Assembly (NCBI RefSeq): GCF_017348835.2
Contig: NZ_CP071375.1
Reading direction: 5' to 3' (one strand)
Length of the DNA: 64,000 nucleotides
Source: Escherichia coli
GTDB lineage: Bacteria > Pseudomonadota > Gammaproteobacteria > Enterobacterales > Enterobacteriaceae
Below, one piece after another: positions 1-131 of this stretch; positions within the stretch are counted from its first letter, which is position 1; each line of letters begins with the position of its first letter. The notes under the pieces were generated by a model. The model did no database searches, had not been told where the DNA came from, and worked only from the letters and a program-made list of their open reading frames with translations. Position numbers and translations under genes: made by a program.

Positions 1-6
1 TAAGGC

Positions 7-54
7 TATCCCTTAATTGTGCATGCTGTTGCGACTATGCACAATTAAGGGATA
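7..54. repeat. Perfect 18-bp inverted repeat with 12-nt spacer (TATCCCTTAATTGTGCAT / ATGCACAATTAAGGGATA), about 80-125 nt upstream of the yajQ start
   Basis: Read directly: arms 7-24 and 37-54 are exact reverse complements. Confidence 0.85.
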
Positions 55-131
55 CGTCCTGGTGCAGGACTGTTGGTTATTTAACTTTGCAGGTATTATG
101 CTTCGCATCAAAAATGAAGGGAGAGGAAAAG

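Follow-up and report, generated by a model that had tools for sequence, protein, structure and literature searches.

Several leader helices of roughly two turns are known to be cut by RNase III with an effect on mRNA stability, among them phage T7 R1.1, the rpsO-pnp leader, and the adhE leader. A site between the divergent genes panE and yajQ of Escherichia coli was reported by Gordon, Cameron, and Pfleger (2017, mBio 8:e00128-17, PMC5371410). Their table of RNase III sites has position 444573, "Intergenic (panE-yajQ)," where 2 and 3 reads were counted in the wild type versus 96 in an rnc deletion mutant (32- to 48-fold), and it marks the site "Y" for in vitro cleavage, which was assayed with T7 transcripts; 5' RACE was used too. 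The half-life of the yajQ mRNA was about 6 min with RNase III cleavage versus about 3 min without it. The same authors drew a long double-stranded region, noted that the panE strand could form this hairpin as well, marked a second RNase III cut as putative in the legend to their Fig. 4, proposed stabilizing 5' hairpins of processed mRNAs, and cautioned that ends made by RNase III can be mistaken for promoter starts.

A second group of systems comprises the bidirectional promoters described by Warman et al. (Grainger laboratory), which share one -10 element and have starts that are 10, 18, or 23 bp apart. Here, we describe a perfect palindrome in the panE-yajQ spacer, compare it with these systems, and weigh the explanations for its symmetry.

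A single-copy perfect palindrome between panE and yajQ

We analyzed a 64,000-nucleotide stretch of E. coli DNA, which is called the window throughout and whose first letter is position 1. The following features near its left end were located.

Positions 7 to 24, no strand: left arm of the perfect palindrome, TATCCCTTAATTGTGCAT, found by repeat search and unchanged between E. coli and E. albertii
Positions 25 to 36, no strand: central spacer or loop of 12 nt, GCTGTTGCGACT, from repeat search and folds
Positions 37 to 54, no strand: right arm of the palindrome, ATGCACAATTAAGGGATA, found by repeat search
Positions 132 to 623, + strand: yajQ coding sequence, 163 amino acids

An earlier reading of the DNA, made from the sequence only, had pointed to a perfect 18-bp inverted repeat with a 12-nt spacer, and the inverted-repeat search returned exactly this structure: the arms at 7 to 24 and 37 to 54 were complementary at 18/18 nucleotides (100%), with 12 nt between them. 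It was the sole inverted repeat of at least 14 nt in the whole window (12-nt seed, arms no more than 60 nt apart). With the base composition of the window, between 1.7e-5 and 5.4e-5 perfect inverted repeats of at least 18 bp with loops of up to 20 to 60 nt were expected by chance in 64 kb. The placement upstream of yajQ in the panE-yajQ divergent region was likewise borne out, with the yajQ ATG at position 132 and the ATG of the divergent panE gene 36 to 37 nt to the left of position 1, which gives a spacer of 167 bp.

The panE-yajQ locus was present in 5,424 of the 5,426 complete E. coli genomes, and the palindrome occupied one locus per genome across these 5,424, even at an E-value of 10; the two match places per genome were both strands of one palindrome. 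There was no match in the phage sequences searched. The plasmid collection gave matches only in megabase records, which were mislabeled chromosomes, and none in true plasmids. Because it is single copy in each genome, the palindrome is not REP-like, as the earlier reading had stated. REP/BIME, ERIC, and MITE-type elements were ruled out as candidates, as many dispersed copies would be expected rather than one per genome. A search of Rfam 15 with L001 2750-3250 returned two chance-level matches (E = 3 and 9.3), far under the gathering score. The half-sites TGTGC...GCACA and AATTGTG resemble those of CRP and lacO. A CRP- or LacI-type operator was rejected because the spacing is wrong, with 16 to 18 bp between the halves instead of 6.

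The palindrome as an RNase III site

Two further features were derived from the published RNase III data and from folding.

Positions 7 to 54 (MG1655 444558 to 444605), + strand: RNA hairpin within the long 5' leader of yajQ, a published RNase III substrate (Gordon et al. 2017, and folds)
Position 22 (MG1655 NC_000913.3 444573), + strand: RNase III-dependent coverage gap (table of Gordon et al. and coordinate conversion)

The reads of Gordon et al. were mapped to NC_000913.3 (PMC5371410). Coordinate conversion placed the palindrome at 444558 to 444605 of that sequence and the yajQ start at 444683, so position 444573 is window position 22, within the left arm. The T7 templates used for the in vitro cleavage spanned the palindrome on both strands (window -174 to 563 for yajQ and 177 to -587 for panE). 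The palindrome is therefore an RNase III site that was already described and experimentally validated, that is, a known site and not a new one.

The folding that had been proposed as a check of the earlier reading agreed with this. The predicted RNA stem had 18+2 bp and, whichever strand was folded, a free energy of about -31 kcal/mol (z about -6), the additional 2 bp coming from G25-C26 paired with G31-C32, and the stem was retained in the predicted fold of the full 275-nt leader. The predicted fold thus includes a double-stranded helix of about two turns (about 20 bp), as in RNase III processing hairpins. Such hairpins are cut in a staggered way that leaves 2-nt 3' overhangs, and from the geometry of this stem, the partner cut is expected near window positions 41 to 42. 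The RNA-seq library of Gordon et al. was perhaps not strand specific, and by their account the hairpin could also form on the panE strand, so the one that matters in vivo could lie on either strand. In a proteomic comparison, YajQ was 0.56-fold in the rnc-14 mutant (Huang et al. 2020, PMC7373196).

The earlier reading had offered two options, a 5'-UTR structure or a binding site for a dimeric protein. The first was correct, in that the hairpin is a published RNase III-cleaved structure, and positive support for the second did not emerge.

Transcripts across the spacer

Huang et al. (PMC7373196) cross-tabulated several earlier transcript maps in U00096.2 coordinates, which we converted to window positions by subtracting 443775 (checked with yajQ at 443907). 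A p19 double-stranded RNA cluster, number 46, lies at 443437-443776 and is labeled "panE 5'"; the p19-captured duplexes are 21 to 22 bp long and reach window position +2. As the same paper reports second-hand, the double-stranded RNA locus MS-115 of Lybecker ("Divergent," 443638-443836) runs through the palindrome, the + strand operon promoter of Conway is at 443641, or window -134, inside panE, and the overlap of this operon with the divergent panE operon is 142 nt and reaches 443783, or window 8. The distal start and the overlap maps indicate a long yajQ leader that is antisense to the panE 5' end and passes through the palindrome.

Two observations concern the region upstream. The distal + strand start has a good -10 hexamer, TACAAT, 8 nt before it, inside panE (L001 2853-2866, window -147 to -134). 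Also, the p19 cluster extends to window -338, which hints at further antisense starts within panE.

A nearer promoter lies on the other side of the palindrome.

Positions 94 to 107, + strand: proximal yajQ promoter, with -10 hexamer TATTAT (94 to 99) in GGTATTATGC and a start at 107

Romero et al. (2014, PMC4681348) mapped this start as FWD_(I)-443882 (window 107), a class I end that was flagged as known. It is 8 nt after the -10 hexamer TATTAT, the surrounding GGTATTATGC block is conserved across the Enterobacteriaceae, and position 107 is the main (proximal) yajQ start, downstream of the palindrome. Because the proximal start lies downstream, only transcripts from the distal start carry the hairpin. 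The earlier reading had called for transcript starts as a check; in the published maps, the hairpin is transcribed from the distal yajQ start, and the main yajQ start is past it. The GGTATTATGC block itself (window 92 to 101) was invariant from Escherichia to Pluralibacter. On the opposite strand it is CATAAT, which means that the -10 of the proximal yajQ promoter could be bidirectional; Romero et al. gave no - strand start at window 92 to 101 (PMC4681348).

Mirror-image promoter-like elements

Each strand of the palindrome carries one promoter-like element.

Positions 17 to 45, + strand: promoter-like TTGTGC (17 to 22), 17 bp, CACAAT (40 to 45), start at 52
Positions 16 to 44, - strand: mirror promoter-like TTGTGC (44 to 39), 17 bp, CACAAT (21 to 16), starts at 10 and 8

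In a pattern search, TTGTGC-N17-CACAAT was found on both strands here and nowhere else in the window, with 0.01 occurrences expected by chance. Starts were predicted from the hexamers at 52 (+) and 9 (-), and these predictions were written down before the start-site table was seen; the panE 5' end at window 8 was already known at that time. The table of Romero et al. (PMC4681348) has TAP-enriched ends at FWD_(II)-443827, or window 52 (+), and at RVS_(II)-443785, or window 10 (-), and the Conway panE 5' end is at window 8 (-), as cited in PMC7373196. The + strand start at 52 is a canonical 7 nt past the -10 hexamer, and the published maps placed a 5'-triphosphate end there. RNase III ends carry a 5' monophosphate and therefore should not be TAP enriched. 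The divergent starts are 42 to 44 bp apart, and each -35 hexamer overlaps the -10 hexamer of the other promoter. The earlier reading had overlooked both the proximal yajQ start at 107 and these hexamers in the arms with mapped starts flanking them.

When compared with the sigma-70 consensus, TTGTGC matched at 3/6 positions and CACAAT at 4/6 (with A2 and T6), at a spacing of 17 bp. A consensus promoter scan of the palindrome region called no promoter on either strand, as the hexamers fell under its threshold. The class II ends of Romero et al. are TAP enriched (5' triphosphate) but are without a coverage step (PMC4681348), so the starts at 52 and 10 could reflect weak or background initiation; this pattern is expected for weak or nested promoters. 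Given the weak hexamers and the negative consensus scan, the mirror-promoter layer is supported but not proven: the hexamers and the published start maps suggest that the two strands of the palindrome act as weak sigma-70-type promoters that fire outward. The literature searched contained no reporter assay or in vitro transcription experiment on these promoters and no paper combining yajQ with "bidirectional promoter," and the ROSE 2023 supplement had no entry for yajQ or panE.

Distribution and conservation

The conservation of the palindrome, which the earlier reading had proposed to examine, was high within Escherichia and broke down outside it. Of 5,424 E. coli genomes, 5,340 (98.5%) shared an identical sequence at window positions 1 to 62, and 3,071 did so over the 62 nt of the spacer that follow. 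In E. albertii, the palindrome and its loop were identical to those of E. coli, with 0 differences over window -35 to 55; all five spacer differences between the two species were at window 56 to 85, and 15% of yajQ third codon positions differed. The Escherichia sample consisted of E. coli and E. albertii.

The Citrobacter freundii group (werkmanii, youngae, braakii, and FP75) has a homologous, imperfect palindrome with an unrelated 13-nt loop. The palindrome was absent from Salmonella (sequences obtained through PanE homologues), C. amalonaticus, C. farmeri, two other Citrobacter, Enterobacter, Leclercia, Lelliottia, Pseudescherichia, and the other aligned genera, and among the matches listed for more distant Enterobacterales there was no comparable repeat upstream of yajQ. 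The genera that lack it have just 8 to 10 nt at this place, between GGTGTT and TAGTATAGCG. Because most relatives have only these 8 to 10 nt, the patchy distribution points to an insertion of about 60 nt, and the alignments look like an insertion common to Escherichia and the C. freundii group. Absence or degeneration in close relatives had been named in advance as grounds against the earlier reading. Outside Escherichia this is literally what was found, and it reflects a lineage-restricted insertion, not a lack of function.

Of the 84 E. coli genomes that differed in window 1 to 62, the one inspected carried an IS element in the left arm, not a point mutation. In this strain, E. coli 13TMH22 (L085, NZ_CP019256.1, 1-300), the IS3-family element IS1203 is in the left arm with a junction at window ~13 to 17; it parts the palindrome from panE and destroys the hairpin, which makes the strain a natural knockout.

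Several observations were made on the surrounding DNA. In E. coli APEC E19025 (L003, NZ_CP126931.1, 1685-2893), the transposase gene of an IS4-family element, ISVsa5 (IS10-like), is in the panE-yajQ spacer, with a junction near window 98, close to the proximal yajQ -10. Beyond yajR, this strain has genes for a TPR protein and a GNAT acetyltransferase in place of cyoE, which suggests a rearrangement. The yajQ-yajR spacer (window ~640 to 745) contains REP/BIME-like sequences, such as GCCTGATAAGCGTAGCGC, and accounts for much of the 95 to 99% identity spread among E. coli genomes in a 700-nt search. The yajQ product of Salmonella enterica is called as 169 amino acids (L086 284-793) or 163 amino acids (L087 284-775), a matter of an alternative upstream start codon call.

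Pairing in Citrobacter and loss of a conserved panE block in Escherichia

The predicted hairpins of the Citrobacter sequences were more stable on the panE-sense strand (-25 to -32.5 kcal/mol) than on the yajQ-sense strand (-7 to -22 kcal/mol). In a six-sequence alignment, 87.7% of the cells were paired on the - strand versus 73.2% on the + strand. Eight pairs varied on one side only, and these were G·U pairs on the - strand and C·A mismatches on the + strand. One-sided changes favored the - strand in 8/9 cases (p about 0.04, with five closely related sequences). A core, ATTGT.C / G.ACAAT, in which the hexamers lie, was constant throughout and was the sole part of the arms that was invariant across Escherichia and Citrobacter. 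The pairing pattern suggests RNA-level selection in the panE leader of Citrobacter, where a TATACT promoter lies upstream of the hairpin. As the sample is small and its members are closely related, we treat this strand bias as a lead only.

The TATACT block has a different fate in Escherichia, where a small hairpin is found instead.

Positions 56 to 70, + strand: 6-bp hairpin GTCCTG-gtg-CAGGAC, Escherichia only

This hairpin is perfect, is followed by a T-rich stretch, and stands in place of the TAGTATAGCG block. That block (TATACT on the panE strand) was conserved in all other Enterobacteriaceae examined, and in Escherichia it now reads TGGTGCAGGA. Judging from this conservation, TATACT is probably the ancestral panE -10. 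Because the conserved -10 block was mutated away, the panE-directed copy in the palindrome is the probable working panE promoter in Escherichia, and the loss of TATACT is consistent with the panE promoter having moved into the palindrome. We also propose the hairpin at 56 to 70 as a candidate for the 5' stabilizing hairpin of the processed yajQ mRNA.

Interpretation and alternatives

The explanation that we consider quite probable is that the palindrome is transcribed and works in two layers, as an RNase III hairpin at the RNA level and as mirror promoters at the DNA level. The RNA layer was shown by others. From the distal promoter inside panE (window -134), a minority of yajQ transcripts start, antisense to the 5' end of panE, and read through the palindrome to form a perfect stem-loop of about 20 bp. 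RNase III cuts this stem at MG1655 444573 (window 22) and thereby separates the antisense leader from the yajQ message; the processed mRNA lives about twice as long, and YajQ protein is correspondingly lower in an rnc mutant. The mirror copies would fire outward, from window 52 toward yajQ and from window 8 to 10 toward panE, and in Citrobacter the pairing of the inserted element would be kept preferentially on the panE-sense strand.

A broader version of this explanation is tentative. One lineage-restricted palindromic insertion of about 60 nt might have served three purposes. It may have supplied a mirror promoter pair; it may have replaced the ancestral panE promoter in Escherichia, with TATACT then becoming the small hairpin; and it may have provided a stem for RNase III in which different strands are selected in different genera: in the C. 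freundii group the panE leader, in Escherichia the long yajQ leader. Simultaneous selection on both strands, or on its DNA and RNA readings, would then account for the perfect pairing of the Escherichia copy.

Alternatively, the palindrome may function at the DNA level only, as overlapping divergent promoters or as a symmetric docking site for RNA polymerase or a regulator, with RNase III cleavage of rare read-through transcripts incidental to the symmetry. The mirror TTGTGC-N17-CACAAT elements with TAP-enriched starts at the canonical distance speak for such an account, and it also draws on the arm core that alone is invariant in both Escherichia and Citrobacter and on the loss of the ancestral panE -10 block in Escherichia. 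However, a promoter requires two hexamers and not 18/18 complementary positions, and the outer stem (7 to 14 and 47 to 54) is also invariant in Escherichia. The retention of pairing through G·U in Citrobacter is sensible only for RNA, and RNase III measurably alters the half-life of the yajQ mRNA and the amount of YajQ protein. We give limited credence to an account confined to DNA.

It is unlikely that the palindrome serves as an operator through which a dimeric or tetrameric regulator, such as NtrC or another factor, controls panE, yajQ, or both. Its perfect dyad symmetry would suit an operator, as would the GTGCA/TGCAC motifs in the arms and a half-site-like GGTGCA at 62 to 67, and an in vitro gSELEX study placed an NtrC peak in the panE/yajQ spacer (U00096.2 443846, about window 71, 41% intensity). 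The center of that peak is outside the palindrome, though, and both its resolution and its intensity are low. The earlier reading had suggested a comparison with transcription factor motifs; the 17-bp NtrC box TGCACCAnnnTGGTGCA, the one motif that was scanned, had no match at up to three mismatches in window 1 to 131. Two 18-bp arms with 12 bp between them (48 bp in total) are far longer than operators usually are, the drift of the outer arm positions in Citrobacter is strand biased and resembles that of an RNA, and the literature searched gave no paper that ties a regulator to the palindrome.

The palindrome might also be a neutral relic, that is, an inserted palindrome, or a quasipalindrome that template switching made perfect, which has not yet decayed in Escherichia. 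Its occurrence in Escherichia and the C. freundii group and not in Salmonella, C. amalonaticus/farmeri, or Enterobacter, its imperfect state in Citrobacter, and the tolerance of an IS element in the left arm by at least one natural E. coli strain all fit this idea. Against it, 0 of the 48 nt are substituted between E. coli and E. albertii, where about 7 substitutions would be expected at the 15% seen at synonymous sites (0.85^48 is about 4e-4), and the 12-nt loop, which template switching cannot protect, is also unchanged. Because the conservation between these species includes the loop, a neutral relic is quite unlikely; the sequence is moreover invariant in 98.5% of E. coli genomes next to a polymorphic spacer, and others have measured molecular effects.

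Finally, an intrinsic terminator or attenuator for one of the divergent transcripts is extremely improbable: the large hairpin is very stable and the scan flagged the small hairpin at 56 to 70 followed by TGTTGGTTAT as terminator-like, but the sequence and the scan agreed with the earlier reading that no T-tract (U-tract) follows the large hairpin on either strand, its stem is A+T-rich, the terminator-like matches equaled the chance expectation, the supplementary files of Adams et al. (2021) give no yajQ or panE 3' ends, and nothing needs terminating in a spacer between divergent genes.

Comparison with known systems

As a validated RNase III site, the palindrome belongs among the few cases in which RNase III cleavage stabilizes an mRNA. 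What is added here beyond the known RNase III site is modest and consists of the symmetry of the promoter-like elements, the history of the insertion, and the strand bias in Citrobacter. If the two-layer reading holds, a divergent gene pair can be rewired by a single short, symmetric insertion, which brings both genes new promoters as well as a processing site at which yajQ is uncoupled from a leader running antisense to panE. The perfect copy in Escherichia, the one-strand, G·U-tolerant copy in Citrobacter, and the lack of a copy in Salmonella offer a natural test of DNA- versus RNA-level selection.

The panE-yajQ site of Gordon et al. (2017, PMC5371410) and the palindrome are the same object, since 444573 is within the left arm. 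The parts of that paper used here do not contain the promoter-like hexamers, the flanking starts, the phylogenetic distribution, or the Citrobacter strand bias. They do describe a similar overlap at the aceEF and pflBA sites and at metY-nusA-infB P2, where the RNase III-cut stem likewise overlaps -35, -10, or start sequences. Because the stem overlaps promoter elements, processed and primary 5' ends lie close together. Those three sites each have one unidirectional internal promoter, whereas the palindrome has two outward, mirror-image promoter-like elements with TAP-enriched starts.

Divergent operons with overlapping 5' UTRs, an "excludon"-like arrangement, have been described as a class cut by RNase III (Lybecker et al. 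2014; Huang et al. 2020, PMC7373196); the panE/yajQ overlap of about 142 nt likewise belongs here. In that class, the double-stranded RNA is intermolecular (sense/antisense), and the palindrome adds an intramolecular stem beside the overlap. As in the class of Warman et al., symmetry would let RNA polymerase bind either way and drive divergent mRNAs. Unlike the promoters of that class, those of the palindrome do not share a -10 element; their -35 and -10 hexamers overlap, and their starts are farther apart. The classical RNase III stems of T7 R1.1, rpsO-pnp, and adhE have the same leader helix of about two turns as the palindrome. T7 sites typically have internal loops, whereas the palindrome stem is perfectly paired, and the cut in pnp destabilizes the message, whereas the cut upstream of yajQ stabilizes it.
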